A DNA stretch of 64,000 nt. It comes from Alphaproteobacteria bacterium (GTDB taxonomy: Bacteria > Pseudomonadota > Alphaproteobacteria > Bin95). The position numbers and the translations under genes were made by a program. The notes under the pieces are model-generated. The model did not search any database and was not told the origin of the DNA. It saw only the letters and a list, made by a program, of their open reading frames with translations. Below are positions 1,206 through 53,605 of this stretch, piece by piece. The DNA lies in the NCBI GenBank assembly GCA_965222315.1, contig OZ244951.1, positions 1,999,893 to 2,063,892 on the forward strand. The letters run 5' to 3'. How positions within the stretch are numbered: the first letter of the stretch is position 1; every line of letters starts with the position of its first letter.

Positions 1206-1277
1206 AGCATGCTCCGCGAATGGCGCGGGCTTCGCCGCGCGGATTGACTGTCTCTGCAATCACCGGCGGCAGAGTGA

Positions 1278-1299
1278 TTGACATTTAGTTTGATGTCAA
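1278..1299. promoter_or_regulatory. Candidate MarR operator: inverted repeat TTGACAT-N8-ATGTCAA between the divergent BNR gene and the MarR gene
   Basis: Perfect 7-bp arms read directly at 1278-1284 and 1293-1299, 13 bp upstream of the MarR ATG. A second inverted repeat CAATCAC..GTGATTG lies at 1257-1280. Confidence 0.4.
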
Positions 1300-1311
1300 C
1301 ATATTTGCAGG

Positions 1312-1785: not shown

Positions 1786-1804
1786 TCCTAGGGGGAAATA
1801 ATCG

Positions 1805-2890
1805 CTAGTTCGGCCGGACGTCGTTCGCGACCGCACGAACCACCGTAAGCGCCTTGTCCACCATGGCCTCGTTCACGTCGAGATGGGTGACGGCGCGCAT
1901 CAGGCCCTTCGGGCCGTAGCCCGCGCCGATGCGGACGCCCTTTTCCAGCAGGCGCTGGTTCATCTCGACATTAGAAATACCCAGACCGCTGGCGTCGAAG
2001 AACACCATGTTGGTCGCGATCTCCGGCGGGTCGAGCACGATGCCCTCAATCTGCGCCAGGCCGCGGGCGAGGCGGCGCGCGTTCTCATGATCTTCCGCCA
2101 GGCGGTCGATATGGTGCTCGAAGGCATAGACGCCGGCCGCCGCAATGATACCCGCCTGCCGCATGGAGCCGCCGAACTGGTGCTTCCAGTGCCAAGCTTC
2201 GTGCATCAGGTCCTTGGAGCCGACCAGCACCGCGCCGACTGGGCAGCCCAGGCCCTTGGACAGGTCAATCCAGGTTGTGTCGCATAGCTGGGCAAAATCC
2301 TTCGCCGGGCGGCCGCTGGCCACCGCGGCATTCAGCAAGCGCGCGCCATCCATGTGCATGGCGAGGCCACGCTCCCGCGCCGCTTCACTCACGCCTTTCA
2401 TGGTCTCCCATGGCCAAACCGCGCCGCCGCCGAAGTTGGAGGTCTGCTCAACCGACACGACTTTCGCCTGCACCCGGTTGTGCTTGTAGGGCCGGATGGC
2501 GGCGTGCACTTGTTCGCCCGTGAAGATGCCCTGGTCACCTTTGACCGTAATCATCATCGCGCCGGAGAGGGCGGCGGGGCCACCCGCCTCCGCATGGATC
2601 GGATGAGCGAGTTCGTCCAGTATGACGCCATCGCCTTGCCGGCAATAAAGGCGGTAGGCAATGGCGTTGCACATGGTGCCGGACGGCACATAGACGGCGG
2701 CCTCATGCCCCGTCAGCTCGCATGCCATCTCGCAGAGCCTGTTTACCGTCGGGTCTTCACCCGCCTGTTCGTCGCCGACAACGGCGTCGGCCATAGCCTG
2801 CCGCATGGCCTGGGTGGGGCGGGTGCCGGTGTCGCTGCCGAAGTCGATTTCGATTGCTGGTAGAGCAGGCATGGAGGTGATGTCTCTCAA
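1805..2890 (-). CDS. ltaE: Low-specificity L-threonine aldolase (beta-eliminating lyase family)
   Basis: 361 aa of the PLP fold-type I threonine aldolase family; conserved MCNAIA, HMDGARL and SKGLGCPVGAVL regions visible. Confidence 0.7.
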   Translation of the reverse strand: MRDITSMPALPAIEIDFGSDTGTRPTQAMRQAMADAVVGDEQAGEDPTVNRLCEMACELTGHEAAVYVPSGTMCNAIAYRLYCRQGDGVILDELAHPIHAEAGGPAALSGAMMITVKGDQGIFTGEQVHAAIRPYKHNRVQAKVVSVEQTSNFGGGAVWPWETMKGVSEAARERGLAMHMDGARLLNAAVASGRPAKDFAQLCDTTWIDLSKGLGCPVGAVLVGSKDLMHEAWHWKHQFGGSMRQAGIIAAAGVYAFEHHIDRLAEDHENARRLARGLAQIEGIVLDPPEIATNMVFFDASGLGISNVEMNQRLLEKGVRIGAGYGPKGLMRAVTHLDVNEAMVDKALTVVRAVANDVRPN

Positions 2891-3398
2891 TTTGCGTTGA
2901 ACCCGTAAACTAGCAAACGCCCTAGTCCTTGCCTATCCGTCTGGCGTTGGTTCGGGGGCGGATTCAGGTGCTGGCAGGGGAAGCCACAGCGATAATTGCT
3001 GCGCTGACACCATTTTCCTCGCTGCCGGCCATGGCTTGGCTGATGGCGCCTGAAAAGGGTGTCCAGGTCTGGATGCGCCGCCGCCCCTGGGACCGCCAAC
3101 CGCCGGAATGAGCCGGTACAACAGAACAAGCGCGATTTGGCGGTGAACCCTACTGGCATGATGGACCAGGAAGGCCAAAATTATCTGTCGGACAAGATGG
3201 GTCCTGCCTCTACTCTCGGCGCCTATTGCACTGTGGCCTGATCATTTTCCCGGTGTTCTTACCTGGCCGATCAGTCCTTCGGCTAAGGAAGCTAGGGCTG
3301 CGGCATCGCATTGGCGACCTTCCCGCTAGCCTTTGCATCGATCCTTAACTAGGCTACCGGGCAATCAGAAATACCCTTAACAGAGTGATGGAGAAGGT

Positions 3399-5003
3399 AT
3401 GTCCACCTACGATTATATCGTTGTCGGTGCCGGTTCCGCCGGTTGTGTGATTGCGGCGCGCCTGAGCGAAGATTCGTCGAAATCCGTGCTGCTGCTGGAG
3501 GCAGGACCGGAGGACAAGTCCATGTGGATCGACATTCCCGCCGGCTTCTCCAAGCTGCTGAACAACACCACCTACAACTGGAATTTCGAGACTGAGCCCG
3601 AGCCCACCATGCACAACCGCCAGATCCCCATTCCGCGGGGAAAGACGCTGGGCGGCTCGTCTTCCATCAACGGTATGCTTTACGTACGCGGTAACCCGCT
3701 CGACTACAATTCCTGGAGCCAGCTTGGGAATCGCGGCTGGTCCTACGAGAGTGTGCTGCCTTACTTTAAAAAATCTGAAAATTTCGAGGGCGACGCTGAC
3801 GATTCCCGCGGCAAGGGCGGTCCGCTTAACGTGGCGCACATGCGCGAGCATCACGAAATCTGCGACGCCTGGATCAAGGCAGCGGGCGCTCAGGGTTACC
3901 CGATCAACAAGGATTACAACAACGGGAACCAGGAAGGCTTCGGCTACTACCAGGTGACGCAGAAAGACGGCAAGCGCCACTCGCTCGCCCGCGCGTTCCT
4001 CGACCCGGCCAAGGGCCGCAAGAACCTGCATATCGTCACCAACGCCATGACCGAGCGGGTTGTGTTGGAAGGCAAGAAAGCGGTGGGCGTGGAGTACTCC
4101 GTCCACGGCAAGAAAGAAATCGCCAATGCGGGGCGCGAAGTGATCGTCTGCGCCGGCGCCGTCTCTTCGCCGGGCATTTTGGAGCATTCCGGCATCGGCC
4201 GTGCCGACGTGCTGAAGCCGCTCGGCATAGACGTACAGCACGAATTGCTAGGCGTCGGTGAGAATTACGGTGACCACTGCGCTCCCCGGATGCGCTGGCG
4301 CGTGACCAAGCCCATCACCCTGAACGAGCAGAGCCGCGGCTTCAGCCTCGTGAAGGAAGTGTTGAAATATTACACCGGCGGTAAGGGCATCCTGACCCTG
4401 ACCGCCGGTGTCGCCTATGGCTTCATCAAGACCAACGAGCATGTCGAGGAACCGGACATGCAGTTCCACTTCGCCCCGGCCTCCTATGGCACGGCGGCGA
4501 CGCGCGAATTGGAGAAGGAGCCGGGCATGACCACGGTCATTGGCCAGTGCCGCCCGGAAAGCCGTGGTTCCATTCATCTGAAATCCGCCCGCGTTGGCGA
4601 AGCACCGGCCATCCGCCCGAATTTCCTCTCAGAGAAAGTTGATCAGGACTGCACCGTTGCCGGTCTGATGGCGGCACGGAGCATCATCGAGAACCCGATC
4701 ATGGACCCCTACCGGAAGTTCGAGGCCGCGCCGGGTGCTGACTGCAACACCTATGACGAGTGGCTGGACTTTGCCCGCTCCAACGCCCAGACGACCTACC
4801 ACGTGGTCGGGACCTGTAAAATGGGGCTGGCGACGGACCGCATGGCGGTGGTGGACGACGAATTGCGGGTCCATGGTATTGAGGGGCTGCGGGTGATCGA
4901 TGCCTCCATCATGCCGACGGTCCCCAGCGGCAATACCAATGCCCCGACCATCATGGTGGCGGAGAAGGGGGCGGACCTGATCAAGGCCGCCGCGGCCGCC
5001 TAG
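3399..5003 (+). CDS. GMC family oxidoreductase (choline/alcohol dehydrogenase-like flavoprotein)
   Basis: N-terminal FAD motif [25 protein letters not shown] signature 1 ([18 protein letters not shown]) and a C-terminal HxxGTCKMG active-site region. Confidence 0.8.
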
Positions 5004-5443
5004 AGCGCCAGCGCCATCACCAGCGCATCGACCCGGCCGGCGCCGCGCTTGTAGTAGCCGGTCCGCCGGCCGGCTGTTTCGAAGCCGGCCTCTTCATAGA
5101 ATCGCTGGGCTGGCAGGTTGTCGACGGCAACTTCCAGCAACAGCCGTTTCACCTTTAGTGCCTTCAGTGCAATGCAGGCTGTCTCCAGCAGCGCGCAGGC
5201 CACGCCTTGGCGGCGGGCGGCGGGCGCGACGCCGATAGTGAAAATTTCGGCTTCGTCAGCTGCGTGGCGGACGAGGATCAGTCCCTTGTCAGGCATCATC
5301 CAGCCGAAAGTGCCGGGCGTGCCCAGCAATGTTCTGAAAGTCTCCGCACTCCAGGCAGCGCCGCCCAAGCCTTCCGCCATGGCCTGGGCATGCAGGCGGG
5401 CTGCGTCATCCGTATTGTCTGGGCGGAGCGCGACCAGTTCCAC
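5000..5443 (-). CDS. rimI: GNAT acetyltransferase, ribosomal-protein-alanine N-acetyltransferase RimI-like
   Basis: GNAT motif (IFTIGVAPAARRQGVACALL...RFYEEAGF) immediately downstream of tsaB, as in the conserved tsaB-rimI pair. The start is uncertain; the ORF extends to 5569 but a GTG/ATG near 5440 fits RimI length. Confidence 0.55.
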   Translation of the reverse strand: MELVALRPDNTDDAARLHAQAMAEGLGGAAWSAETFRTLLGTPGTFGWMMPDKGLILVRHAADEAEIFTIGVAPAARRQGVACALLETACIALKALKVKRLLLEVAVDNLPAQRFYEEAGFETAGRRTGYYKRGAGRVDALVMALAL

Positions 5444-5447
5444 GGCT

Positions 5448-6155
5448 TCAGTCCGTCCGTGCGCGCAGGCGGCCACCGTCCTTTGGCAGTTTTGCCCGTG
5501 GCGGTGCGAGATAGAGCGGCTGTGCCGGCCAGCCGGTCCTACCCTTGGCAAGTTGCTGCATCGCTGCATTGGCGACCATTGGGGCCGTCAATGCGCGTGC
5601 GCCGGTATCCTGGCAAGGCAACCCGGCTGCCAGCAGCGCTGGCACGCCGTCCCCCGCTAGCAGGGTATCGTGGCCCGCCAGAGCCTCAACGGCTTCCTCA
5701 GCGGTCAGGTTGCGGCCCTCCGCAGGCCAGCCCGGCGCAGGTGCGAGAGCGGCATCGAGTAGCTGGACGTAGAGGCTACGCGCCTTGCTGTCGAAGGCCA
5801 CTGCGATAGGCCTGCGTTCAAGATTGGGCAAGCTGGCTGCCAATGCGGTGAAGCGGTCGATCCCAACCAGCGTCAGACCCGCGCCATACGCCAACCCTTG
5901 AGCGGCGGAGAGCCCGGTACGCAGGCCGGTGAACGAGCCCGGCCCGACGGTCGTCGTCAGCGCATCCAAATCGCGAAGCTTCACCCCTGCTGCGGCAAGC
6001 ACCTTTTGTACCGAGGGCAGCAAAAACTCCACATGCCCCCGCTGCATGGGCAGATGCATTGCGGCAAGTGCGCGACGGCCCTGGCAGATGGCGATGCTCA
6101 GCGCAGCGCCAGCCGTGTCGAAGGCTAAGATGGCGGGAGGGGGCTTCTCAGGCAT
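5448..6155 (-). CDS. tsaB: tRNA threonylcarbamoyladenosine biosynthesis protein TsaB (YeaZ)
   Basis: 235 aa; the N-terminus ILAFDTAGAALSIAI...VGPGSFTGLRTGLSAAQGLA is typical of the inactive Kae1/TsaD paralog. Confidence 0.75.
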   Translation of the reverse strand: MPEKPPPAILAFDTAGAALSIAICQGRRALAAMHLPMQRGHVEFLLPSVQKVLAAAGVKLRDLDALTTTVGPGSFTGLRTGLSAAQGLAYGAGLTLVGIDRFTALAASLPNLERRPIAVAFDSKARSLYVQLLDAALAPAPGWPAEGRNLTAEEAVEALAGHDTLLAGDGVPALLAAGLPCQDTGARALTAPMVANAAMQQLAKGRTGWPAQPLYLAPPRAKLPKDGGRLRARTD

Positions 6156-6969
6156 AGGCCAGCAATAGCAGCAACACGCCCAGGCCCAAACGATAGATCA
6201 CAAAGGGTAGGAAGCTCGCCCGCGCCAGCCAGCGCATCATCAGGATGATGGCAAGCCAGGCGCTGGCGAAGGCCAAGCCGGCTCCGATCATCGCATCGTG
6301 TTCCAACTGCACGTTGCCGGACTTGACTAGGTCGAGCCCCGCCAGCGCGCCAGCCCCCAGGATCGTCGGGATTGAGAGCAGTAGGGCGAAGCGCGCTGCA
6401 TCGACCCGGTTCAGGCCGACCGCCCGGCCCATGGTCATGCAAATTCCGGAGCGGCTGACGCCCGGTATCAAGGCCAGCACCTGCGCCAGACCGATGGCCA
6501 ATGCCCGGCCATAGCCCAGCTGCGGCAGCGCCAGCCGGGTCCCCATTCGGTCGGAGAGCCAGAGCGCAACGCCAAAGATCAGTGTGGTCCAGCCGATCAC
6601 CTCCACGGTTCGGGCATTGTCGGTGATCAGGTCTTTGACCAGAAAGCCGACGATGAACACAGGGATTGTCGCCAGCGCCACTTGCCAGGCCAGATGCCAG
6701 CCGTCATTCCGCTTGCCGGTGATACCCTGCAGCAGCCCCGCGATGACCTGCCACAGATCGCGCCAGACATAGAGAATGACCGCACCCAACGTGCCCACAT
6801 GCAGGGCGACGTCCATCACCAGATCGGCGTTCGCGTTGGCGCCGACCGTATCCAGCCCGGCAGATGCGCCGAATTCCCGCATCAGGATCAGGTGGCCGGA
6901 CGAACTGATCGGCAAAAACTCCGTGATACCCTGAACGAGAGCCAGGACTACAATGGCGGCCAAAGACAT
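6148..6969 (-). CDS. uppP: Undecaprenyl-diphosphatase (UppP/BacA)
   Basis: Polytopic membrane protein carrying the BacA motifs GITEFLPISSSGHL and PGVSRSG. Start taken at MSLAAIVVL. Confidence 0.8.
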   Translation of the reverse strand: MSLAAIVVLALVQGITEFLPISSSGHLILMREFGASAGLDTVGANANADLVMDVALHVGTLGAVILYVWRDLWQVIAGLLQGITGKRNDGWHLAWQVALATIPVFIVGFLVKDLITDNARTVEVIGWTTLIFGVALWLSDRMGTRLALPQLGYGRALAIGLAQVLALIPGVSRSGICMTMGRAVGLNRVDAARFALLLSIPTILGAGALAGLDLVKSGNVQLEHDAMIGAGLAFASAWLAIILMMRWLARASFLPFVIYRLGLGVLLLLLAYA

Positions 6970-7061
6970 CGGGCAGACTCCAAGGCGGGCGTGACGGTAT
7001 AGACGGCGTGACGAAGGCGCACTGCCCAAAATGACGGCAATTCGTTAAGAGTGTTCTCACC

Positions 7062-7730
7062 ATGCCAATGCTTTTTCACCTCCCACTTTCCCCTTTCTGC
7101 CGCAAGGTCCGCTTGGTCGCGGCGGAAAAGAGCGTTGGCGTTGAGCTTCAGGTTGAGGAGCCCTGGCGGCGGAACGAAGAGTTTCTGGCGCTGAACCCGG
7201 CCTGTGTCGTGCCGGTGTGGGTGGAGGACGATGGGTCGGTACTCGCCGAGTCGTCTGCGATCTGCGAGTACCTGGACGATATTGACATGAGCGCCAGCCT
7301 GCTGGGCGATACGCCCGGCGACCGGGCCGAGACACGGCGGCTGGCAGCTTGGTTTGACATCAAGTTCTATCGGGAAGTCACCGACTATCTGTACGGCGAG
7401 CGCGTGTTAAAGCGTATCCGCCGGACGGGCGAGCCCAACTCCGCCGCCATTCGCGCCGGTCGGCAGAACATCACCTATCACCTGGACTATATCGCCTGGC
7501 TGACGGAGCGGCGGAACTGGCTGGCGGGCGGCAGGCTCAGCCTTGCGGATCTTGCCGCGGCTGCCCAATTGTCGACTCTCGACTATCTGGGCGAGGTGCC
7601 GTGGGACCATTCTGAAGGCGCGAAGGTCTGGTATCAGCGGGTCAAGTCCCGCCCTAGCTTCCGCACCCTGCTGGCCGATTCGGTGCCCGGCTTCCCGCCA
7701 CCCGCTCACTACGCTGATTTGGACTTTTAG
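7062..7730 (+). CDS. Glutathione S-transferase family protein
   Basis: 222 aa with an N-terminal thioredoxin-like GST domain (LFHLPLSPFCRKVRL...ALNPACVVPVW...SSAICEYL) and a helical C-terminal domain. Confidence 0.75.
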   Translation: MPMLFHLPLSPFCRKVRLVAAEKSVGVELQVEEPWRRNEEFLALNPACVVPVWVEDDGSVLAESSAICEYLDDIDMSASLLGDTPGDRAETRRLAAWFDIKFYREVTDYLYGERVLKRIRRTGEPNSAAIRAGRQNITYHLDYIAWLTERRNWLAGGRLSLADLAAAAQLSTLDYLGEVPWDHSEGAKVWYQRVKSRPSFRTLLADSVPGFPPPAHYADLDF

Positions 7731-9562: not shown

Positions 9563-10948
9563 GTGAGCCAGACGCCCATGACGTTCCTTCCCAATTCACT
9601 GTCCGCCCGTGACATCGCGGCCATTGTCCATCCGCAAACCGATCTGCGCAGTCATCTGGAGCGCGGGCCGGATGTGATCACTCGCGGCAGCGGCGTGCGC
9701 ATTTTTGATGAGGACGGCAAGGAATTTATCGACGGCGCGGCGGGGCTCTGGTGCGCGTCTCTGGGCTTTGCATCGGAGAGGCTGGCCAAGGTCGCCTACG
9801 ACCAGATGGTCAAACTCGGCTACTATCATCTTTACCGCCATAATTCGAACGAGCCGAGCGTCCTTCTGGCGGAAGAACTCCTGAAAATTGCGCCGGTACC
9901 AATGGCGAAGGTGTTGTTCCAATGCTCCGGCTCGGAGGCGAATGACGCCGCGATCAAGCTCGCCTGGTACTATTTTGCTGCTCAGGGAAAGCCAGAGAAG
10001 ATCAAGATTATTGGCCGGCAGCGCGGCTATCACGGCTCTACCGCTGCGGCGATCAGCGTGTCGGGCAAGCCGGACATGCATGCGGACTTCAACCTGCCCT
10101 TCGCCATGTTCCGGCACACCAGCTTCCCACACTACTACGCGCAGCACCTGGACGGGGAGAGCGAAGAGGATTTCGCGACCCGTATGGCCCAGGACCTGGA
10201 AGATCTCATCCTGGCCGAAGGGCCGGAAACCGTTGCCGCGTTCTTCGCCGAACCGGTGATGGGCGCGGGCGGCGGTATCGTGCCGCCTGTCACCTATTTC
10301 ACCAAGATCCAAGCAGTGTTGGGCAAGTACGACGTGCTGTTCGTAGCCGACGAGGTCATCTGTGGTTTCGGGCGGACGGGCAAAATGTGGGGCAGCCAGA
10401 CGTTCGACCTGCAACCGGATATGATCTCTTCCGCCAAGGCACTATCTGCGGCGATGCAGCCCATCTCCGCGCTGCTTATCAACCAACGGGTGTATGAGGG
10501 GATGTTGAGCGAAAGCGACAAGCTCGGCAGCTTCGCTCATGGCTCAACCTATGCCGGACACCCTGTTGCGGCGGCGGTCGCGCTGGAAACACTGAAGATC
10601 TATGAGGAGATCGATGTTGTTGGCCGCGCACGGGAGATGGGCGCGATCCTGAACGAAAGGCTGGCTGTGCTGGAAAGCCACCCGCTGGTCGGCAACGCCA
10701 ACGGCGTTGGCCTGATGGGCGGGCTGGAATTGGTGGCGGACAAGGAAACCCGAACGCCATTCCCGGCGGCCGAACAGGTCGGGTCCCGTGTTGGCGATGC
10801 TGCGCGTGAACGCGGCCTGATCTGCCGTATCGTTGGCGACCGGGTCGTGTTCTCCCCGCCGCTGGTTATCACCGGTGACGAGGTGCACGCGCTGGCCGAC
10901 AGACTCACCGGTGCGCTCGACCAGATTGCAGCAGAGTTGGACCGGTAG
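9563..10948 (+). CDS. Class III (omega) aminotransferase, PLP-dependent
   Basis: 461 aa with the aminotransferase III signature (FVADEVICGFGRTGKMWG) and the lysine-bearing SSAKALSA segment. Confidence 0.8.
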   Translation: MSQTPMTFLPNSLSARDIAAIVHPQTDLRSHLERGPDVITRGSGVRIFDEDGKEFIDGAAGLWCASLGFASERLAKVAYDQMVKLGYYHLYRHNSNEPSVLLAEELLKIAPVPMAKVLFQCSGSEANDAAIKLAWYYFAAQGKPEKIKIIGRQRGYHGSTAAAISVSGKPDMHADFNLPFAMFRHTSFPHYYAQHLDGESEEDFATRMAQDLEDLILAEGPETVAAFFAEPVMGAGGGIVPPVTYFTKIQAVLGKYDVLFVADEVICGFGRTGKMWGSQTFDLQPDMISSAKALSAAMQPISALLINQRVYEGMLSESDKLGSFAHGSTYAGHPVAAAVALETLKIYEEIDVVGRAREMGAILNERLAVLESHPLVGNANGVGLMGGLELVADKETRTPFPAAEQVGSRVGDAARERGLICRIVGDRVVFSPPLVITGDEVHALADRLTGALDQIAAELDR

Positions 10949-10985: not shown

Positions 10986-11169
10986 TTATAAAATTGTGAA
11001 TAGCAACATATGGTTGCTGCATTACTCTCCTGATTATGCCAGATTAATGTTCCGGTTTAGGCCGCCATTAGAATGTGCTAGAGCCGTGCGCGGTTTGCGT
11101 GACCAATTTCATAGGTGGGCAGCACACGGTAAGGGCATATAGGCGTTGTTCATATGGAGAGTTGCGACA

Positions 11170-14100
11170 ATGACAATAGATCAAAACAATAGCGGCGTCT
11201 CTGCAACGTCCGGTTCCGGCGGCGGCTTCCTTTCCGGTGAGGTAATCGTTCGCTTTGGCGACAGCAGCCTGAGCCAGGAGGCGAAAAGCGCCCTCCGCGA
11301 TTCTGTTGGCGCAGAATTGGTGTCGTCCACCCAGAAATGGGGTTTCGAGCTCTGGCAGTTTGATGGTGTTGCAACTGATGTCGCCATCGAGCAATTGCAT
11401 GCAAGCGGCGTTGCGGACTACGCCGAGTATGTCCAGGCCAACTATGTGCTTACGGCGGCGGACTTTGAAGCCGAAGCCACGATCCCGACAGACCCGCAGT
11501 TCGGCAACCTCTGGGGCCTGAACAATACGGGCCAATCCAACGGCACCGTCGATGCGGACATCGATGCGCCGGAAGCCTGGGATGTCAGCACAGGCGCGGG
11601 CGTCGTCGTTGCCGTGATCGACAGCGGCGTCGATTACAACCATCCCGATCTGATGAACCAGATGTGGATCAATACCGGCGAGATTGCGGGCAACGGTATC
11701 GACGACGACAATAACGGCTTCGTCGATGACTATTATGGCTACGACTTCGCCAATGACGATGGCGACCCATGGGACGACGACAGCCACGGCACGCACGTCG
11801 CGGGCACCATCGCCGCCCAGGCAAACAATGGGACGGGCATCACGGGTGTAGCCTACGACGCCGATATTATGGCGCTGAAGTTCCTGGATGCTACCGGCTC
11901 CGGCAGCACTTTCGATGCGATCCGCGCGATTGAATATGCAACGCTGATGGGAGCCGACATTACCAATAACAGCTGGGGCGGCGGCGGCTTTTCTCAGGCG
12001 CTCTACGACGCAATTGATTTGTCGGGACAGGGTGGTTCGTTGTTCGTCGCGGCTGCCGGCAATGGCGGCGCGGATCAAATTGGCGACAACAATGACAACC
12101 TGCCGCACTATCCGTCCAACTATGACTTGAGCAACCTCATTTCGGTTGCTGCCACCGACCGGAATGACAATCTGACGTCGTTCTCGAATTTTGGCGCAAC
12201 TGCCGTGGACCTTGCGGCCCCCGGCAGTTCCATCCTCAGCAGCGTGCCTGGCGGCGGTTACGCATGGTTCAACGGCACGTCGATGGCGACACCTCACGTC
12301 GCGGGCGTTGCTGCTTTGCTGCTCGCCAGCGAGCCGGGCCTGACGCCGGAACAGGTCAAAGACCGCATTCTGGACTCGGTCGATCCGCTTCCCGGTCTGG
12401 ATGGCATTACCGTGACGGGCGGCCGCCTGAACGCCGCCAATACGCTTGCACCGCCGCAGCCGGGCTCGATTTCCGGCACGGTTTGGGACGATGCCGACAA
12501 TGACGGTGTGCAGGATGCTGGCGAGGCTGGCCTGTCCGGCTGGACCGTATTCTTGGATGCCAACCAGAACGGTAGTCTGGACGGGGGGGAAGCCACCGCA
12601 ACCACCAATGGAGCCGGGGACTACACGTTCTCCAATGTTGCCCCTGGCTCTTATCAGGTGCAGCAGGTTGTGCAGAGCGGCTGGACGCAGACAGCGCCAC
12701 TTTTTGCGGGAAATTATGCCTATTCAGACAGCAATAGTGCAGGCGGGCCTGCCTATAACTGGTTCGACATTTCCGGTGTCGGCACGCAGATTGCGCTGAC
12801 TGACGATTCATTCGCGACGGTTGCCTTGCCCTTCTCGTTCGATTTTTATGAGCAGACTGAAACGTCGGTGAAGATTTCCTCCAACGGATACCTGACCTTC
12901 GGCGCGGACGGAACGGACTACAGCAACGAAGCCATCCCCAGTGCGACGGACCCGGACGCGATTATCGCGCCGTTCTGGGATGACCTGAACCCGGGGAATG
13001 GCGGCAACATTTACTATTACGATGACGCAGCCAACAACCGCTTCATTGTGGAATATGACAGCATCCAACCCTATGCCGGTTCGGGCAACTATACCTTCCA
13101 GGCGATCCTGAATGCGGACGGCAGCATCGGATTCCAATACCAGGCGATGAGCGGGACGCTAAATAGCGCAACCATCGGTATCGAAAATTACGCCGGCAAT
13201 GGTGGGTTGCAGGTCGCCTACAACGCCAACTACGTCCAGAATGGCCTTGCTGTGCTGATCGACGATGCGGCGGGTCAGCCGACTTTTAACGCAGTTACGG
13301 TGTCCAGCGGCCAGGCCGTCACGGGCGCCGACTTCGGCAACCACGATCCAAGCGGCGGCGGTGGTGGAAACCCCACCGACGACACGTTTATCGGCGGCGC
13401 AATCGACAATGTGTTCGACGGCGGTGGCGGCGATGACTCATTTTTGCTGCGGTACGGTAACGACACGGCTACCGGCGGCACGGGCGCGGATGAGTTCAAG
13501 ATTGACGGCCGCTTCGTCAACGATGGGGATGCGCACACCATTACCGACCTCACCTTCGGCGATGGTGACACGTTGGTGCTCCGGTTCTTCGAGCCGAACT
13601 CGTTCAGCAACGCGCCCGATCCTTCCAACCATCTGAATATCGGCAATAATGGTCGCACCGCAACGATCGACAGTATCGAGGACATCGTCGAAGCTCATGA
13701 CCATGGCGTTATGCAGGCATCCGACTCGGGCGACGGCGATACGCTGCTCAGCATCAGCGTTGCTGGTGATGAGGTGACTGTTGAACTGGACGGCATTTCC
13801 TTTGCCTCGCTCGGCATTGGCGGCGGTCCTCCGGTCGATCCATCGCCCGGCGATGATAGTTTTATTGGTGGCGGGGCGGATAATACCTTCCTGGGCTGGG
13901 GCGGGGACGACGACTTCCTGTTGCGCTATGGCAACGATACGGCTACCGGCGGCACAGGCGCGGACACGTTCAAGTTCGATGGCCGCTACGTCAACGACGG
14001 CGACTCGCACACCGTCACCGACCTCAATTTTGCCGAGGGCGACGTGATGATCATGCGCTTCTTTGAGACCGGCACGTTTGACAATGCGGTGGACCCGTCT

Positions 14101-14283
14101 AACCACCTGAGCGTCGGAAACAGTGGCGGCACTGCGACCTTCGACAGCGTAGAGGACATTTTGGAGGCGCACGCCAATGGCGTTATGACCGCTGCGGACG
14201 ACGGCTTTGGCGGTACGAACCTGAGTGTGTCCGTGGGCGGCGAGCTGTTGACCGTTACTCTGGACGGCTGGGATATCATTTAA
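11170..14283 (+). CDS. Subtilisin-like S8 serine peptidase with I9 propeptide, Cna-B/SdrD-like domain and C-terminal RTX-type calcium-binding repeat modules
   Basis: Catalytic triad regions VAVIDSGVDYNHPDL (Asp), HGTHVAGTIAA (His) and GTSMATPHVAGVAALL (Ser). No N-terminal hydrophobic signal peptide. GGxGxDxUx nonapeptides (GGGGDDSFL, GGTGADEFK, GGTGADTFK). The C-terminus ends ...TLDGWDII, resembling a type I secretion signal. Confidence 0.8.
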   Translation: MTIDQNNSGVSATSGSGGGFLSGEVIVRFGDSSLSQEAKSALRDSVGAELVSSTQKWGFELWQFDGVATDVAIEQLHASGVADYAEYVQANYVLTAADFEAEATIPTDPQFGNLWGLNNTGQSNGTVDADIDAPEAWDVSTGAGVVVAVIDSGVDYNHPDLMNQMWINTGEIAGNGIDDDNNGFVDDYYGYDFANDDGDPWDDDSHGTHVAGTIAAQANNGTGITGVAYDADIMALKFLDATGSGSTFDAIRAIEYATLMGADITNNSWGGGGFSQALYDAIDLSGQGGSLFVAAAGNGGADQIGDNNDNLPHYPSNYDLSNLISVAATDRNDNLTSFSNFGATAVDLAAPGSSILSSVPGGGYAWFNGTSMATPHVAGVAALLLASEPGLTPEQVKDRILDSVDPLPGLDGITVTGGRLNAANTLAPPQPGSISGTVWDDADNDGVQDAGEAGLSGWTVFLDANQNGSLDGGEATATTNGAGDYTFSNVAPGSYQVQQVVQSGWTQTAPLFAGNYAYSDSNSAGGPAYNWFDISGVGTQIALTDDSFATVALPFSFDFYEQTETSVKISSNGYLTFGADGTDYSNEAIPSATDPDAIIAPFWDDLNPGNGGNIYYYDDAANNRFIVEYDSIQPYAGSGNYTFQAILNADGSIGFQYQAMSGTLNSATIGIENYAGNGGLQVAYNANYVQNGLAVLIDDAAGQPTFNAVTVSSGQAVTGADFGNHDPSGGGGGNPTDDTFIGGAIDNVFDGGGGDDSFLLRYGNDTATGGTGADEFKIDGRFVNDGDAHTITDLTFGDGDTLVLRFFEPNSFSNAPDPSNHLNIGNNGRTATIDSIEDIVEAHDHGVMQASDSGDGDTLLSISVAGDEVTVELDGISFASLGIGGGPPVDPSPGDDSFIGGGADNTFLGWGGDDDFLLRYGNDTATGGTGADTFKFDGRYVNDGDSHTVTDLNFAEGDVMIMRFFETGTFDNAVDPSNHLSVGNSGGTATFDSVEDILEAHANGVMTAADDGFGGTNLSVSVGGELLTVTLDGWDII
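13375..14280 (+). repeat. Tandem duplication of a ~150-aa RTX-containing module inside the subtilase gene
   Basis: Unit 1 (DDTFIGGAIDNVFDGGGGDDSFLLRYGNDTATGGTGADEFKIDGRFVNDGDAHTITDL...) and unit 2 (DDSFIGGGADNTFLGWGGDDDFLLRYGNDTATGGTGADTFKFDGRYVNDGDSHTVTDL...) align end to end at roughly 60-65% identity. Confidence 0.6.
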
Positions 14284-16686: not shown

Positions 16687-17748
16687 CTACCCGGCCCGCT
16701 GCAAATCCTGAATTACCTCGCGCAGCGCGCCGGCGTCGGCCTCGTTCTCGACCGGCATGGCGAATTCGATGGACGTGATGCAATCATCGTAGCGCTCATG
16801 CAGTTTGGCGGCGATGGTGTCATAAGTCCCTACAGTGACGAAGTCGTGGTAGAGGTCATCCGGCACCCACGCCTGCATCTCGTCCCAGCGTTGCGCTTTC
16901 GATAGTTGGGCCATCTCCGCTGCGAGGTCGCCATAGCCGTGAAGTTCAAAGGGGCGGCGATAGCTGGGGGTGGATGCGTAGAAGGCGATGCGGGCGCGGG
17001 TCTCATCGATCTTGGCGGCCAGCGCGTCTTCGGTGCGGGCAGCGGCGACCAGGGGTTTCATAGCGACCTGAAAGTGGTCGAGACTGCGACCGGCCTTGGC
17101 CGCCCCGCGCTCGGCCGCCGGTTGCATCACTTCCTTGATGTAGCGCGGCGTGCATACGGGGTGCGGCCGCATTCCATCCGCACACTCGCCGGAAATCCGG
17201 CACATGACTTCGTTTACCACGGCGACGTGGATCGGCGGCGGCGGGTGGTCGATGGGGCCCGGATCGAACAGCGGCACCATCAGCGAGAGATTGTAGCGCT
17301 CGCTCTCATAGTTAAGCTTTTCGCCCGTCTGCCACGTGTGCCAGACAGCCCGGACCGCGCCGATATAGTCCCGCATCCAGGGGCCGGGCGGGTGATACTC
17401 CATGCCGAAGCGGCGCATGATGTGTCCGCGCACCTGGCTGCCGAGGCCGAGCGTGAACCGTCCCTTCGAGAGGCGCTGTAGCGACCAGGCGCTCATGGCA
17501 GTGATGGCGGGCGCCCGTGGAAAGGCCATGGCGACGGAAGTGGCGAGCTTCAGCGTTGACGTGCCAGCCGCGGCGATGGCCATCACCTGGTATGGGTCAT
17601 CCTTGGTTTCCTCCACCACCAGCGTGTCGTAGCCGAGGTCTTCGACCTGTTTGGCGTCTTCCAGCAGGGTCGAGAGGTCGATGGCCTTGTCCGGCGCACG
17701 GATGCCCGGATCGGTTTTACCGAGGGGGAGATAGGTTTCGACTTTCAT
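16687..17748 (-). CDS. LLM-class (luciferase-like) flavin/F420-dependent oxidoreductase
   Basis: 353 aa of the TIM-barrel luciferase-like monooxygenase family. Confidence 0.7.
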   Translation of the reverse strand: MKVETYLPLGKTDPGIRAPDKAIDLSTLLEDAKQVEDLGYDTLVVEETKDDPYQVMAIAAAGTSTLKLATSVAMAFPRAPAITAMSAWSLQRLSKGRFTLGLGSQVRGHIMRRFGMEYHPPGPWMRDYIGAVRAVWHTWQTGEKLNYESERYNLSLMVPLFDPGPIDHPPPPIHVAVVNEVMCRISGECADGMRPHPVCTPRYIKEVMQPAAERGAAKAGRSLDHFQVAMKPLVAAARTEDALAAKIDETRARIAFYASTPSYRRPFELHGYGDLAAEMAQLSKAQRWDEMQAWVPDDLYHDFVTVGTYDTIAAKLHERYDDCITSIEFAMPVENEADAGALREVIQDLQRAG

Positions 17749-19061
17749 GAGCGTTGTGGCGTTTCCGTATTGGTTAGCGGTGGCGCAAAGAGTTGCACGG
17801 GGTCGGAAATACCCCGCAAGCGAAAGGAACCCAGCGCCTCCATCGGATCGTCTAAGAGCGCGGCGACCGGTTCCGTCACCAACAGAGGCCGCCGCAATTC
17901 CTTGGTCATTGTCTCAACCCGGGCCGCCACGTTTACCGCGGGACCGATCACCGTGAAATCCAGGCGGTCAGGCGAGCCGATATTGCCGAAGAACACTTCG
18001 CCCGTGTGGAGCGCCAAGCCAATGCGCAGTGGCTGCCAGCCACCGATTCCGGCCAGCGGTTCCGGCGGTTCGGCAGAGAGACGGGCAATGCGGTCGCGAG
18101 CGTTGCGGGCCGCAGCAAATGCCTGCCGTGCCGTTTCGCGGCGGGCCGTTTCAGGGCCGTTGGTGAAAACCGCGAGCAGCCCGTCACCCATGAATTTCAG
18201 CACTTCTCCACCCTGTTCCTGGATGGCGGCTACCAGCGCTTCGAAATAGGCGTTCAGCAACGCCAGCATATTTTGAGGCGTTAAGCGGCTGGAAAGCTCT
18301 GTGAACCCGCGCATGTCAGACACCAGAACCACCGCGTCGAGAGGCGCGCCCGTGCCGCGGGTAATGGAGCCGTCCAGGACTTGTCGCGCTGCATTTCGGC
18401 CCAGGTAGGCTGTGGCAATATTCTCTGACACCAATAAGGCCATCAATCGCGCCACATGAATGGCGAGCAACCGGACCAGATTGTTGATGATCTCAAACGA
18501 AGGGCCGGAAAGACCGCCCGCCTCCACTGAGGCCATGGTAACCGTCATACTCTCCCGGCGCAGACCTTCGATCGATGTCAGTGGCATCACCAGATAATCT
18601 TTGAAGCCGCGCTCCGCCAATTCGCCCATGATCGGAAACCGCTCCGCCATGGCCGGGTCCCGTGGATCACCATGCAGGGTCTCTCCATGCTCGATGGCTA
18701 GATAGAGCGGGCTCTTAAGGTAAGAGGGATGCTCCAAGGTATCCGGATGAATGCGAATTTCGTCGCAAAGGCCGTCGTCCGCTTCCCAAATCCAGGAGTG
18801 CCCCAGGAGTTGCGGATGCAAGGTACCGGCGGAGAACGCCAATCGGGTCACCGGCAGCCCTGCGGCGACCAGCCGCCAGCAAAACGCTTCGGCCAGATCC
18901 AGCATGTTTCGGCAGAGCAGGGCCTCGCCCAGCAGCCAGGTTTCGACATCCGCTGGTGTGGCCGTGGTCCCGGCAACCGGAGGACCGTTGGCCGCCCGGG
19001 CATTCAGTTCGATATTCGCAGCGTACTGCCGTGGGGCTGGATCGAAACGGTGTGGGTGCAT
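17745..19061 (-). CDS. Class III adenylate/guanylate cyclase with an N-terminal domain of unknown function
   Basis: The C-terminal CYC domain is visible (VVLVSDMRGFTELSS...LKFMGDGLLAVF...IGLHTGEVFFGNIGS...VIGPAVNVAARVE). The N-terminal ~200 aa is unassigned. Its start overlaps the preceding gene's stop by 4 nt. Confidence 0.7.
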   Translation of the reverse strand: MHPHRFDPAPRQYAANIELNARAANGPPVAGTTATPADVETWLLGEALLCRNMLDLAEAFCWRLVAAGLPVTRLAFSAGTLHPQLLGHSWIWEADDGLCDEIRIHPDTLEHPSYLKSPLYLAIEHGETLHGDPRDPAMAERFPIMGELAERGFKDYLVMPLTSIEGLRRESMTVTMASVEAGGLSGPSFEIINNLVRLLAIHVARLMALLVSENIATAYLGRNAARQVLDGSITRGTGAPLDAVVLVSDMRGFTELSSRLTPQNMLALLNAYFEALVAAIQEQGGEVLKFMGDGLLAVFTNGPETARRETARQAFAAARNARDRIARLSAEPPEPLAGIGGWQPLRIGLALHTGEVFFGNIGSPDRLDFTVIGPAVNVAARVETMTKELRRPLLVTEPVAALLDDPMEALGSFRLRGISDPVQLFAPPLTNTETPQRS

Positions 19062-19970: not shown

Positions 19971-20432
19971 ATGCGTTGTTTTCTGGGAGTGATGATGGTG
20001 GCTGGCCTGTTGGCGTATGGCCCGGCACAAGCGGTATCTCTCTCCGATACAGTCAGTATGGAATTGTCGGAAATTCAGACCCTCATTGAAGAAGGCGAAC
20101 ACGAGAAAGCCATCGACGAATTATGGCACTATGTGGAGGCCAAACCGGACAGTGCCGATGCCTACAACCTGCTCGGTTACAGCTACCGCAAAGACAAACA
20201 GTTCGACCGCGCAAAGCAATCCTATGACCGGGCGCTGCAACTGGACCCGGAACATAAGGGCGCGCACGAATACCTAGGGGAGCTTTACCTGCAAACCGGC
20301 AAGCCTGAATTGGCGGAGGCGCAGTTGGAAAAGCTGGCGGAGATCTGTGGCCTGGAAGGCTGTGACGAGTATGAGGAACTCCGCGTTGCCATCGGCGAAT
20401 TCAAACGGGGAAAATCCACCGGAAAGTGGTGA
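19971..20432 (+). CDS. TPR-repeat exported protein
   Basis: Signal peptide MRCFLGVMMVAGLLAYGPAQA followed by TPR-like helices (ADAYNLLGYSYRKDKQFDRAKQSYDRALQLDP...). Confidence 0.6.
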   Translation: MRCFLGVMMVAGLLAYGPAQAVSLSDTVSMELSEIQTLIEEGEHEKAIDELWHYVEAKPDSADAYNLLGYSYRKDKQFDRAKQSYDRALQLDPEHKGAHEYLGELYLQTGKPELAEAQLEKLAEICGLEGCDEYEELRVAIGEFKRGKSTGKW

Positions 20433-20475
20433 CGGCGACGGCCGTCCGGGTTGACTCCTCTGGCCAGCAAAATTA

Positions 20476-20490
20476 GAACTAAATAGGAAC
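20476..20490 (+). promoter_or_regulatory. Alphaproteobacterial LexA (SOS) box GAAC-N7-GAAC
   Basis: GAACTAAATAGGAAC read directly at 20476-20490, 48 bp upstream of the ATG of the ImuA-like gene and within an AT-rich promoter segment. Confidence 0.6.
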
Positions 20491-20537
20491 ATATAGGAAA
20501 TATTGTAATGTGCCGGTAAGGGCGCAGGCAGGGTGTT

Positions 20538-21311
20538 ATGGCCGGTAAGCTCGCCCATTTGGCAGCGCAAATCGCTAAGATCGAGGCGGATACCAGCCGC
20601 CGGACGGAGCCGCTGCCGGCGGTGCCGCTGCAATGCCCGGACATCGACGCAACCTTGCCGGGGCAGGGCCTTGCCCGTGGGGCGGTGCATGAGATGATGG
20701 GGCCGGGCCATGACGGCGACCAGAGGGGCGATGGCGCGCTGATGGGTTTTGCTTGCGTCGCGCTCGCCCGGCTGATGCACGCAGACGAGCATGCCCGCCC
20801 GGCGCTCTGGTGCATGAATCAGCGCCTGCAGCAGGTGGGGGGTCTGCTCTCGGGCCTGGTCTATCCGCCGGGCCTTCAGATGATGGGTGTGCCGGTGGAG
20901 CGGCTGCTGCTTGCCTACACCAACAACGATGCCGACACGCTCTGGGCGATGGAGGAGGCGTTGCAAAGCCGCGCCGTCTCCGCCGTACTGGGGGAGTTGA
21001 ACCGGTTCGAGCCGGTGGCGGCGCGCCGCCTCCAACTGGCAGCGCAAACCCATGCGGGCACGGCGCTGGCGCTCTGGCCGGGGAAGGGGGGCAATGCCGC
21101 CAGCTTTGCCGAAACACGCTGGCGGCTCACCAACCTGCCCAGCACCGGTAACATGATGGAACCCCATTGGAAGGTCACCCTGGTGCGCGCCCGCCGCAGC
21201 GCGGTGACGGCGGAATGGTCTGTGCGTTGGCGGGATGGGCGGCTGGAGGCCGATGCGCTGGAGCAGGCATCGCCGCAGGCGTCCCTTACGGCTAGCACTC
21301 ATCGGGGTTAG
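20538..21311 (+). CDS. imuA: ImuA-like SOS mutagenesis protein (RecA/SulA-fold, inducible mutagenesis cassette component)
   Basis: 257 aa with ImuA landmarks: LP.G..L..GA.HE near the N-terminus, LWAMEEAL, RRLQLAAQ, and a C-terminal TRWRLTNLPS...HWKVTLVRAR. A LexA box lies directly upstream. The assignment rests on pattern recall, not alignment. Confidence 0.5.
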   Translation: MAGKLAHLAAQIAKIEADTSRRTEPLPAVPLQCPDIDATLPGQGLARGAVHEMMGPGHDGDQRGDGALMGFACVALARLMHADEHARPALWCMNQRLQQVGGLLSGLVYPPGLQMMGVPVERLLLAYTNNDADTLWAMEEALQSRAVSAVLGELNRFEPVAARRLQLAAQTHAGTALALWPGKGGNAASFAETRWRLTNLPSTGNMMEPHWKVTLVRARRSAVTAEWSVRWRDGRLEADALEQASPQASLTASTHRG

Positions 21312-21351: not shown

Positions 21352-22281
21352 ATGAAACTCTGCTATTTTAACGATTTCCGCTTGGGCGTGGTGAAGGGGG
21401 ATAACGTCGTCGATATCACCGATGCCGTCAGCCGCCTGCCGCATCGCGATAGCCGCGACCTGATCTGCGCCCTGATTGCCGATTGGGCGGACCAGAAGGG
21501 TAAGGTGGAAGACGCCGTTGCTGCCGGTGCCAGTGTACCGCTTTCCGGCGTTCGTCTGCGCGCGCCGGTGCCGATGCCGGGCAAGATCGATTGCATGGCC
21601 GTCAACTACATGGAAAACGGCCTGCTGGAGAAGGCAGCCCCCATCAACGCCTTCCACAAGACCCCGGCCTCCCTCATCGGCATGGGCGACACCATGGTGC
21701 TGCCCGACATTCCAGCCGGCATTTTCGAGGGCGAGGCCGAACTGGCGCTGGTTATCGGCAAGACGGCCAAGAATGTTAGCCAGGCCGATGCCATGGGCTA
21801 CATTTTCGGGTACATGAATTTCATCGACGGCTCGGCCCGGGACATGCCACCGCCCGGCAACGTGTTCTTCCAGGCGAAGAGCCGGGACACGTTCGCGCCG
21901 ACCGGCCCGTTCCTGGTGACCGCGGACGAGGTGCCGGACCCGCAGAACCTGGACGTGAAGCTGACCAACAACGGCACCGTCTATCAGGACTTCAACACGG
22001 ACGACATGGCCCACCAGATCCCGCGCATCATCGAGTGGTTGTCGTCTATCCACACGCTGGAGCCGGGCGACATCGTCGCGACCGGCACCAACCACCAGGG
22101 CCTGAACCCGTTCCAGGACGGTGACAAGGTCACCCTGGAAGTCGGCCCGCTCGGCAAGCTGGAATTCAGCGTTTCTGACCCCTTGAAGCGCACCTGGGCG
22201 CGCGTGACCCGCGCCGGCCACCGCGAGTCCGGCGAGCCCGGCAACTACACCCCGCAGCTGACGGGCAAGTACGCGAAGTAA
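21352..22281 (+). CDS. Fumarylacetoacetate hydrolase (FAH) family protein
   Basis: FAH-fold features (MAVNYMEN...GEAELALVIGK...) in a protein of about 309 aa. Start taken at MKLCYF. Confidence 0.75.
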   Translation: MKLCYFNDFRLGVVKGDNVVDITDAVSRLPHRDSRDLICALIADWADQKGKVEDAVAAGASVPLSGVRLRAPVPMPGKIDCMAVNYMENGLLEKAAPINAFHKTPASLIGMGDTMVLPDIPAGIFEGEAELALVIGKTAKNVSQADAMGYIFGYMNFIDGSARDMPPPGNVFFQAKSRDTFAPTGPFLVTADEVPDPQNLDVKLTNNGTVYQDFNTDDMAHQIPRIIEWLSSIHTLEPGDIVATGTNHQGLNPFQDGDKVTLEVGPLGKLEFSVSDPLKRTWARVTRAGHRESGEPGNYTPQLTGKYAK

Positions 22282-31138: not shown

Positions 31139-33412
31139 CTACTTTGTCTTCGCCTCGTAGACGCCGTCCCAGCCGTCGCCTGGCGGGTCTGCGCGCAGTT
31201 CATTGATGCGCAGGGCATATTCTTCGTAAAGCCCAGTCAGGCCGCCTGGATTGGGCGCTATGTCTTCGGGCGGGCCTTCTTGAGCATATGCTAAGGCGCT
31301 ATCCCAGTCCTGGGCACGGTAGGCGCTGAGCATTGCATCGACATGCGCCTTCGTTCGCGCGAATTGCGGCGTGGCGGCCATCGCGGCATCACCCAGCACG
31401 GTGAATACCCGCACGGCTTGTGTCTTGCCCTTCACTTGCAGCAGATCCAGTTCCAGGTAGGCGAAACCGGGGGCAAGGTTGGCCGTATCCTCCGACACAA
31501 CCAGGTCCGTGCCATACATCTTACTTTGCCCCTCCAGGCGGGAGGCGGTGTTGACCGTGTCGCCCAGGCAGGAATAGTCGAAGCGCAAGTCGCTGCCCAT
31601 ATTGCCGACAACGCAATCGCCCGTGTTAAGGCCCATGCCGATACGTACGGGCGGCAGGGCGCGGCCTTCTTCCGCCGCTTCCGCCTGCCATTCCGGCACC
31701 AGTTCCGCGAGTCTTGCGCGGATGGTTAACGCTGCGCCCACCGCTTGGGTGGCGTGATCGGGCTCGTCCACCGGGGCGTTCCAGAAGGCCATGATCGCAT
31801 CACCCATGTATTTGTCGATGGTGCCGCCGCTCTCCATGATGATGTCGGTCATTGGGGTGAGGAACTTGTTGATAAACTGGGTGAGCTGAATTGGCGTCAT
31901 GCTTTCAGAGATCGGCGTAAACCCTCTTATGTCGCAGAAAAAAAGTGTTAACGGACGGAGTTCTCCGCCCAATTGCGGTTCCTGGCCGGACTCCGCCATG
32001 CGCGAGACCAGCGCCGGGGAAAGGTAGCGCCCGAAGGTAGAACGCACCCGTTGCCGCTCCCTTTCGCTAAGGAGGTATTGAGTGGAGGTAACGACCAGAT
32101 AAACTATCAACGCGCCAACGGCCGGGTAGAGCGGGTCCACCAACAACCGGGCTTCCGAGTAGGCCAGCCATGAGCCAATGCCGCCACCTGCGGCGGCAAC
32201 CAGCCCGATCAGCGCGCAAGGTACCGGTCCCAGCCACGGCAGCAGGAAGACGAACACAAGGCCCATCATACCAAGCCCTAAGAACTCGGCTGCATCTGCC
32301 CAGCCTGGCCGGATCAAGTAATGGCCCAAGATCATCTGCTCAAGTGCCTGAGCATGAACGTAAATTCCCGGTACGCCACTGGTGAGTGATGTGGCGCGGA
32401 GATCCCGCAAACCCGGCGCTGTCGCGCCGATTAGCATGATTTGGCCCTCGACCAGCTCGATGAGCGCTTCCGGTTCTTGCAGCACGCGCCAAGCGGGAAT
32501 CGTGCGTTCGGGGATATCCTCTGAGTAGTGAATCCAGAATTGCGTGTCCTGCGCCATTGGTATTTCGAGTGCGCCGACTCGAAGGAGGTTCAAGCCATAG
32601 AATGCGCCTAGCCGGAACTCGCCCTGTGCATGAGCGGACCGCGCCACCAACGTGCTGGCGCCCTGGGCGACGCGCAGTGCCTCGACGGAGATCGTCGGGA
32701 TAATCGCATCGTCGATTTTCGAGAGCAGGGGCATGCGCCGGACAATCCCATCGCGCTCCGGCAGGTACGAGAAGTTGGCAAAGCCGGTGGCGGCCTCTTC
32801 CAGAACGGCTAGGTTACGGGTGGCGTGATCGAACTTTGGAATTGAATCGATCACGTCCTGATGGCCGGCAAATCCGACGCGCTTGGGCAAAGGTTCGGTG
32901 TTGCCTGCCTCACCGTGAAAGATCATGCCTAAAACACTTGGCGAGTTCGCGATGGCTTCGGCAAGGCGGTCGTCGTGGTCGCGAAGGCTCCGGAGGTGCG
33001 GCGCGATTTGTTCGCGAACTTCCTCCGGCAGTTTCCAGTCGCGGATGACTGTTGCCGGCGATGTGCGGTCTGGCTCAGCAAAAACAATATCAAACCCGAT
33101 CGCAGCAGAGCCGAGCGCGTTGAGATTGTCCACCAGATCAGCCATGATATGCCGCGGCCAGGGCCATTGGCCGAAGCGCCGCAGCGATTCCTCGTCCACG
33201 GCGATGACACGCACCGGGGCGGCCTCGTAGGTGCGGGGCGCGAGTTGTTGATAGCGGTCAAATACAAGGAAACGCGCAATTTTCAGGCCACCAGGATCCG
33301 CCCAACGGAGGGCCAAGGCCGCAAATAGTGCCAGTAACCCAGCAAGTATCACAATACCGCGGCGGCTAAAAATTCGTCGAGTGTGCTTTTTTTCACTCTC
33401 ATTTTTTGCCAT
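31139..33412 (-). CDS. CHASE2 sensor-domain adenylate/guanylate cyclase
   Basis: N-terminal TM segment, periplasmic CHASE2 region and three TM helices, then a class III cyclase domain (FFCDIRGFTPISE...KYMGDAIMAFWNAP...IGMGLNTGDCVVGNMGS...GDTVNTASRLE). Confidence 0.75.
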   Translation of the reverse strand: MAKNESEKKHTRRIFSRRGIVILAGLLALFAALALRWADPGGLKIARFLVFDRYQQLAPRTYEAAPVRVIAVDEESLRRFGQWPWPRHIMADLVDNLNALGSAAIGFDIVFAEPDRTSPATVIRDWKLPEEVREQIAPHLRSLRDHDDRLAEAIANSPSVLGMIFHGEAGNTEPLPKRVGFAGHQDVIDSIPKFDHATRNLAVLEEAATGFANFSYLPERDGIVRRMPLLSKIDDAIIPTISVEALRVAQGASTLVARSAHAQGEFRLGAFYGLNLLRVGALEIPMAQDTQFWIHYSEDIPERTIPAWRVLQEPEALIELVEGQIMLIGATAPGLRDLRATSLTSGVPGIYVHAQALEQMILGHYLIRPGWADAAEFLGLGMMGLVFVFLLPWLGPVPCALIGLVAAAGGGIGSWLAYSEARLLVDPLYPAVGALIVYLVVTSTQYLLSERERQRVRSTFGRYLSPALVSRMAESGQEPQLGGELRPLTLFFCDIRGFTPISESMTPIQLTQFINKFLTPMTDIIMESGGTIDKYMGDAIMAFWNAPVDEPDHATQAVGAALTIRARLAELVPEWQAEAAEEGRALPPVRIGMGLNTGDCVVGNMGSDLRFDYSCLGDTVNTASRLEGQSKMYGTDLVVSEDTANLAPGFAYLELDLLQVKGKTQAVRVFTVLGDAAMAATPQFARTKAHVDAMLSAYRAQDWDSALAYAQEGPPEDIAPNPGGLTGLYEEYALRINELRADPPGDGWDGVYEAKTK

Positions 33413-53503: not shown

Positions 53504-53605
53504 TGCCTTGTCCTTCAGTCGTCGGTGCGAAATGATCGCGTCATTGCCTCGCCCGAGTCTATGGCGAAGCCAAAAGATCACAACGTCCCCCTTGGAGGAA
53601 GCCAC

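Follow-up and report, generated by a model that had tools for sequence, protein, structure and literature searches.

ImuA has been described as a homologue of RecA that lacks the ATPase site (PMC6511836), and in the Rhodospirillales sampled for Table S4 of that study, which is centered on ImuB, the gene order is ImuA, ImuB and DnaE2. Other arrangements have been recorded. According to a review that cites Erill 2006 (PMC3901139), nearly all configurations of these genes occur, among them genomes in which imuA, imuB and imuC each occupy a separate locus with an SOS box of its own, and mycobacteria have a split system in which imuA'-imuB is separated from dnaE2 (PMC3901139, PMC6511836). The LexA motif published for Alphaproteobacteria is the direct repeat GTTC-N7-GTTC (PMC4951493, with reference to Fernandez de Henestrosa 1998 and Erill 2004).

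The locus analyzed here lies in a 64-kb stretch of alphaproteobacterial DNA, the whole of which we call the window. A preliminary description had reported a GAAC-N7-GAAC box at 20476-20490 upstream of an open reading frame for a 257-aa protein, with a gene of the FAH family downstream. Both are present: the box is on the plus strand with 47 nt between its end and the ATG, and the downstream gene matches the Pfam model FAA_hydrolase. The features of the locus, in window coordinates, are as follows:

About 19971-20432, plus strand: gene for a small TPR protein, upstream of the imuA-like coding sequence, identified by a domain match.
20451-20456, plus strand: -35-like hexamer TTGACT, exactly 17 nt before TAGAAC; a presumed promoter element.
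20474-20479, plus strand: -10-like hexamer TAGAAC, whose last four bases are the first GAAC of the operator; likewise a presumed element.
20476-20490, plus strand: putative LexA operator GAACTAAATAGGAAC, an exact direct repeat GAAC-N7-GAAC (equivalent to GTTC-N7-GTTC) conserved in orthologues.
20538-21311, plus strand: imuA-like coding sequence with an ATG start, 257 aa, taken from the list of open reading frames.
21352-22281, plus strand: gene for a FAH-family hydrolase (Pfam PF01557 FAA_hydrolase, E 3.9e-49), the next gene after the imuA-like coding sequence.

When the ImuB and DnaE2 sequences of a complete cassette locus (L007) were searched by tblastn, we found no credible imuB or dnaE2 across the 64-kb window, and none was found in any orthologous locus, in agreement with the earlier claim that neither gene follows. 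Two open reading frames that resemble the missing genes in size and order were set aside, one of 461 aa at 9563-10948, 10 kb upstream, with the size of an imuB product but encoding a class-III aminotransferase, and one of 1045 aa at 11146-14283, with the size of a dnaE2 product but encoding a subtilase. A weak tblastn match to the N-terminus of ImuB at 60876-61058 (E 0.043) falls outside any open reading frame and was dismissed. The subtilase carries SdrD_B and NIDO domains, and elsewhere in the window two proteins with adenylate/guanylate cyclase domains are encoded within 15 kb of each other on the minus strand (17745-19061 and 31139-33412), the second with a CHASE2 sensor domain; these cyclase-domain and subtilase genes are unrelated to the imuA finding. 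We also recorded a 116-aa open reading frame on the minus strand at 59247-59597, containing WIVERTFAWLGRCRRLAKN, which looks to us like the C-terminal portion of a DDE transposase of the IS5 family and is possibly the remnant of an insertion sequence.

By sequence similarity, the window protein is a member of the ImuA family, as had been proposed. It matches the NCBIfam model of ImuA (NF033429, ImuA_translesion) with an E-value of 1.1e-18 and a score of 67.8 bits, where the curated cut-off is 150, and it shares 40% identity with the L007 cassette ImuA in an alignment of 221 aa (E 1.6e-32). A database search returned a tight group of homologues at 45-100% identity followed by a continuum at 30-42% that JGI and NCBI name ImuA, the source names being ‘protein ImuA’ or ‘ImuA family protein’. 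The motifs that had been cited as ImuA hallmarks are all there (LWAMEEAL at 135-142, RRLQLAAQ at 163-170, TRWRL at 193-197, and the series W211, V213, L215, R217 and R219), and the protein retains 11 invariant and 25 nearly invariant columns of the family. The low NF033429 score is a property of the model and not of this gene, given that the model matches all 62 ImuA-family homologues of our alignment A2 and that every one of them falls well below the cut-off, with a best E-value of 1.8e-27. No Pfam model matches the window protein. With this gap in Pfam and the NF033429 cut-off as it stands, annotation of such genes may need other evidence for naming.

A confident AlphaFold2 (AF2) model of the window protein, computed with a 62-sequence alignment, reached a pLDDT of 86 and a pTM of 0.83, and its best Foldseek matches among solved structures were RecA (E about 1e-13, TM about 0.6). 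Aligned by family profile, the RecA Walker A sequence ‘SGKTT’ stands opposite the consensus ‘dGAAt’, which in the window protein is G66-A67-L68, indicating that the P-loop lysine and threonine are gone. The model thus points to a RecA-like core fold without a canonical ATPase site, and the protein is probably not an ATPase, in agreement with what has been described for ImuA. A single-protein phmmer search against PDB sequences gave nothing useful.

The sequence upstream of the gene provides a second line of evidence. We compared eight distinct orthologous upstream regions (the window, L001, L169, L172, L175, L003, L012 and L011), whose proteins share 49-81% identity with that of the window (P0008 of L169, 65-69%), and found the layout TTGnnn-N17-TAGAAC-N7-GAAC in all eight. 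The hexamer TAGAAC is invariant among them, and 17-47 nt separate the end of the box from the start codon; the intergenic DNA around the box is otherwise diverged and poorly conserved. Similar elements occur at cassette promoters: among 97 cassette imuA promoters, about 30 have TTGACx at the place of the -35-like hexamer, with the same 17-nt spacing, and 55 have ‘TA’ directly before the box. The cassette box consensus is GAAC-A-A/T-A-N4-GAAC, from which the window box departs at one spacer position (position 5). It was through this comparison of orthologues that the layout TTGACT-N17-TAGAAC was found; a generic sigma-70 scan did not call it because that scan demands a T at position 6 of the -10 hexamer, and its sole site was an unrelated one within the upstream gene. 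We therefore regard GAACTAAATAGGAAC as a putative LexA operator in the promoter of an SOS gene, which upholds the earlier proposal, the direct repeat matching the motif given in PMC4951493 and being conserved in orthologues. More generally, TTGACx-N17-TAGAAC-N7-GAAC is a useful signature of alphaproteobacterial imuA promoters.

By itself, GAAC-N7-GAAC is not significant in the window; position and conservation carry the significance. The 64 kb contain five exact copies of the repeat where 1.35 are expected, and a count of five arose in one of 100 shuffles. Three of the other four copies are inside coding ORFs and one is intergenic, and all four have G+C-rich spacers. The intergenic copy, GAACTGGAGCCGAAC at 54110-54124 on the plus strand, is located 133 bp upstream of a minus-strand gene resembling SGL/gluconolactonase (52544-53977), and it is probably a chance match because its spacer is G+C-rich, unlike those of real boxes. 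Upstream of imuA the picture is different: the exact GAAC-N7-GAAC or its complement was found at 85 of 86 imuA loci in a genome scan and, among the matches listed in a metagenome scan, at 70 of 75, giving 155 of the 161 alphaproteobacterial imuA loci examined (the metagenome part again being among the matches listed). The background rate is about 0.04 boxes per 450 bp, with the imuA sites themselves still counted in.

To place the window gene among its relatives, we compared gene contexts across the best 80 of 235 hits in a genome scan that covered species representatives, where the closest match to the window protein was 81% identical. All homologues at least 49% identical within these 80 are solo, and those at most 45% identical with enough flanking sequence are followed by imuB and dnaE2, with the exception of two Sabulicella isolates. 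The window gene sits in a monophyletic clade of genes, 45-90% identical to the window protein at the protein level, that are always unlinked from imuB-dnaE2; in the orthologous contexts examined, up to 10 kb of flank on each side (less at contig ends) contained neither gene. In a neighbor-joining tree this solo clade forms one group nested among the alphaproteobacterial cassette ImuAs. A search of metagenome contigs with the clade alignment returned cassette-type and other ImuAs but no solo-clade members among the matches listed. Three arrangements of the neighboring genes were seen in the clade:

TPR-imuA-FAH: the window and L169-171.
ApbA-imuA-FAH: L001.
rho-DLH-NIPSNAP-TPR-imuA-mnmE-gidA-gidB-parA-parB: L003-5 and L172-177.

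In the window, L001, L010 and L169-171, the FAH gene begins 33-107 bp past the imuA stop codon; its coordinates in the relatives are:

L001: 10775-11743.
L010: 727-1650.
L169: 5410-6342.

A scan of the window found no terminator-like site between the imuA-like gene and the FAH gene, and the two may be co-transcribed, which would make the FAH gene SOS-induced as well. We know of no link between FAH enzymes and DNA damage. On the other side, most members of each of the two subclades have a small TPR gene (about 145-153 aa) directly 5' of the solo imuA, with the LexA box between the two, although the downstream genes vary. The TPR genes beside solo imuA are:

Window: 19971-20432, plus strand.
L169: 4011-4457.
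L172: 226-663.
L175: 1944-2381.
L003: 2423-2860.

The N-terminus of the TPR protein, MRCFLGVMMVAGLLAYGPAQA, looks like a signal peptide when judged by eye, and the adjacency of the two genes is probably a relic of synteny because a DNA-repair factor is unlikely to have a partner that is exported. In the deeper subclade (L172 at 226-7405, L173, L175 and L003), the TPR-imuA pair lies between rho-DLH-NIPSNAP and mnmE-gidA-gidB-parA-parB. Clusters of the latter type usually adjoin the chromosomal replication origin in Alphaproteobacteria, and an origin-proximal place for an SOS gene may or may not mean anything.

The solo clade is under purifying selection, with a dN/dS of 0.18 between the window gene and its 81% orthologue and of 0.16-0.30 across the clade; the neighboring genes have values of 0.10-0.13. 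Of the 46 columns strongly conserved in cassette ImuA, 31 are fully kept in the solo clade. The clade also has two insertions of its own, one in the P-loop region (QRGD, 62-65) and one further along (GLLS, 102-105), as well as substitutions at residues that are otherwise conserved (R9A, G32Q, E230R and F238A), changes that could reflect an altered partner. The median identity of the solo clade to cassette ImuAs is 32-35%, compared with 38% among the cassette ImuAs themselves (5-95% range 36-41).

Detachment of imuA from its cassette is not confined to this clade. Independent detachment has occurred in at least four further lineages, namely Sabulicella (L082 S. glaciei and L088 S. rubraurantiaca), L093/L100, L101 and L146, where the 2.3-10 kb of available downstream flank contain no imuB or dnaE2. 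Each has an exact GAAC-N7-GAAC or GTTC-N7-GTTC upstream of its solo imuA, and their cassette relatives are 49-57% identical, so that loss of linkage looks recurrent. Among the best 120 ImuB matches to a Pseudoroseomonas query (L026), a list that ends at 50% identity and in which most entries are nameless, there were no Sabulicella entries. Other variation was seen in the cassettes themselves. In Parvibaculum MAGs (L015, L021, L030, L036 and L079) a gap of about 1 kb separates the tblastn matches to imuA and imuB, compared with about 50-250 bp in most other loci, which suggests that an extra gene is inserted within the Parvibaculum cassette, and in L007 a FitA-like RHH gene stands between imuB and dnaE2, with toxin-antitoxin genes flanking the cassette.

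Taken together, we consider it probable, with a modest degree of confidence, that the window gene is the LexA-repressed imuA half of a split system whose other half is imuB-dnaE2, and that it has kept a cassette-type promoter and operator. The dispersed configurations documented in PMC3901139 incline us to this explanation over the others, somewhat beyond an even chance, and the promoter/operator layout in common with many cassette promoters implies that an ancestral control region was retained when the linkage to imuB-dnaE2 was lost. Weighing against a split system are the lack of imuB and dnaE2 in the window and in the orthologous contexts, the divergence of the clade, and its specific insertions and substitutions. 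Under the proposed mechanism, a LexA dimer would occupy GAAC-N7-GAAC (20476-20490) in the undamaged cell, and as the operator overlaps TAGAAC of TTGACT-N17-TAGAAC, RNA polymerase would be excluded; an operator overlapping the -10 element implies repression by occlusion. After DNA damage, RecA-stimulated self-cleavage of LexA would free the promoter, and the 257-aa RecA-fold product without a functional P-loop would serve as the ImuA accessory subunit of the ImuB-DnaE2 translesion mutasome. LexA binding and damage induction of the window imuA are predicted here from its upstream sequence, and we infer that imuB and dnaE2 lie elsewhere in the genome, presumably behind an SOS box of their own, with products that would interact with the window protein. 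The locus offers a clean, well-conserved example of an apparently LexA-regulated imuA unlinked from imuB-dnaE2, a kind of dispersal that is already documented.

The leading alternative, which we rate as unlikely, is that the gene is a true orphan of a lineage that lost or never had imuB and dnaE2, its SOS-induced RecA-fold product acting alone, for example by limiting RecA filaments or recombination. Several observations are in keeping with this: the gene is solo in eight of eight orthologous contexts and throughout the 64 kb of the window, purifying selection and control by a LexA box persist although the clade is an old one with 45-50% identity across its members, family-conserved positions carry substitutions alongside the clade-specific insertions, and identity to cassette ImuAs is lower than these show to one another. 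There is also a precedent for an activity on RecA, since in vitro the ImuA of Myxococcus xanthus binds to RecA1 and is an inhibitor of both the recombinase activity of RecA1 and its binding to DNA (bioRxiv 10.1101/2020.12.14.422803). Against an orphan, most residues invariant across the family are kept, split arrangements with separate SOS boxes are on record (PMC3901139), and the other solo imuA genes are close to cassette genes (50-57% identity), pointing to detachment as a rearrangement that is common and neutral. In its fullest form the orphan explanation would mean that an uncultivated Rhodospirillales-like clade without ImuB or DnaE2 has long kept an SOS-induced, ATPase-dead RecA paralogue that may modulate RecA filaments or a fork-associated partner, and this we hold to be doubtful. 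If the gene were such an orphan, it would point to an ImuA function separable from translesion synthesis, and a lineage lacking imuB and dnaE2 would offer a handle on what ImuA does independently of ImuB, for example the modulation of RecA that has been reported in M. xanthus.

Less likely still is that a full imuA-imuB-dnaE2 cassette exists elsewhere in the genome and that the window copy is an extra, divergent duplicate with a modified or redundant role. The maximum identity of the clade to cassette ImuAs, 38-43%, is what an old duplicate might show, Alphaproteobacteria with more than one cassette in a genome are known (PMC3901139), and Table S4 of PMC6511836 has two ImuB entries for Tistrella. 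When we looked for a second, cassette-type imuA from the five solo-clade genomes, however, none was present among the best 80 of 235 hits, a result that speaks only weakly against a duplicate, given that coverage of the hits and the incompleteness of the MAGs.

Finally, the suggestion in the preliminary description that the protein might be a SulA-like SOS inhibitor of cell division that binds FtsZ is not favored and appears very improbable, since its matches to the SulA models NF007892 and TIGR00623 (E 3e-5 and 1e-4) score 23.7 and 21.9 bits against cut-offs of 162 and 150, far below the score of the ImuA model, and equally weak matches occur in 42 of the 62 ImuA-family homologues of A2; the family profile also matches P. 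aeruginosa SulA (1OFU, E 0.002) and the gene is, like sulA, solo and apparently SOS-regulated, but its close and distant homologues are all ImuA, and the modeled protein has the size of a full RecA core with an N-terminal helix and finds its best structural matches in RecA.

Among the known systems, the nearest to the window locus are the alphaproteobacterial cassettes, such as those of Caulobacter crescentus, L006, L007 and L014, whose ImuA belongs to the same family at 33-41% identity and, like the window protein, has a RecA-like fold without the Walker A lysine. The GAAC-N7-GAAC operator is common to both, and TTGACx-N17-TAGAAC is found in many cassettes. Unlike a cassette imuA, the window gene has no imuB-dnaE2 downstream, and the clade in which it falls is a distinct one, marked by two short insertions and several substitutions at conserved positions. 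The split imuABC systems, exemplified by imuA'-imuB and dnaE2 of M. tuberculosis, are comparable in that dispersed parts each keep LexA control, as PMC3901139 describes, but here imuA is the lone part, and the window locus is a probable member of this class. The ImuA of Myxococcus xanthus is, like the window protein, a RecA homologue of the ImuA family, and it reportedly binds both ImuB and RecA1 and inhibits the RecA recombinase; its R71 and T72 support ATPase activity (PMC11002988), whereas the residues of the window protein that align with Walker A are Ala-Leu, and the M. xanthus imuA adjoins imuB while the window imuA does not. SulA of E. coli and P. aeruginosa is also a small SOS-induced relative of the RecA core encoded by a single gene behind a LexA box, but the similarity of the window protein to it is marginal (22-24 bits) and common to 42 of 62 A2 homologues. 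RecA itself is the best structural match of the modeled window protein, the N-terminal helix included, from which the window protein differs in being 13-19% identical, in having neither the Walker A GKT nor the C-terminal domain of RecA, and in being about 100 residues shorter.
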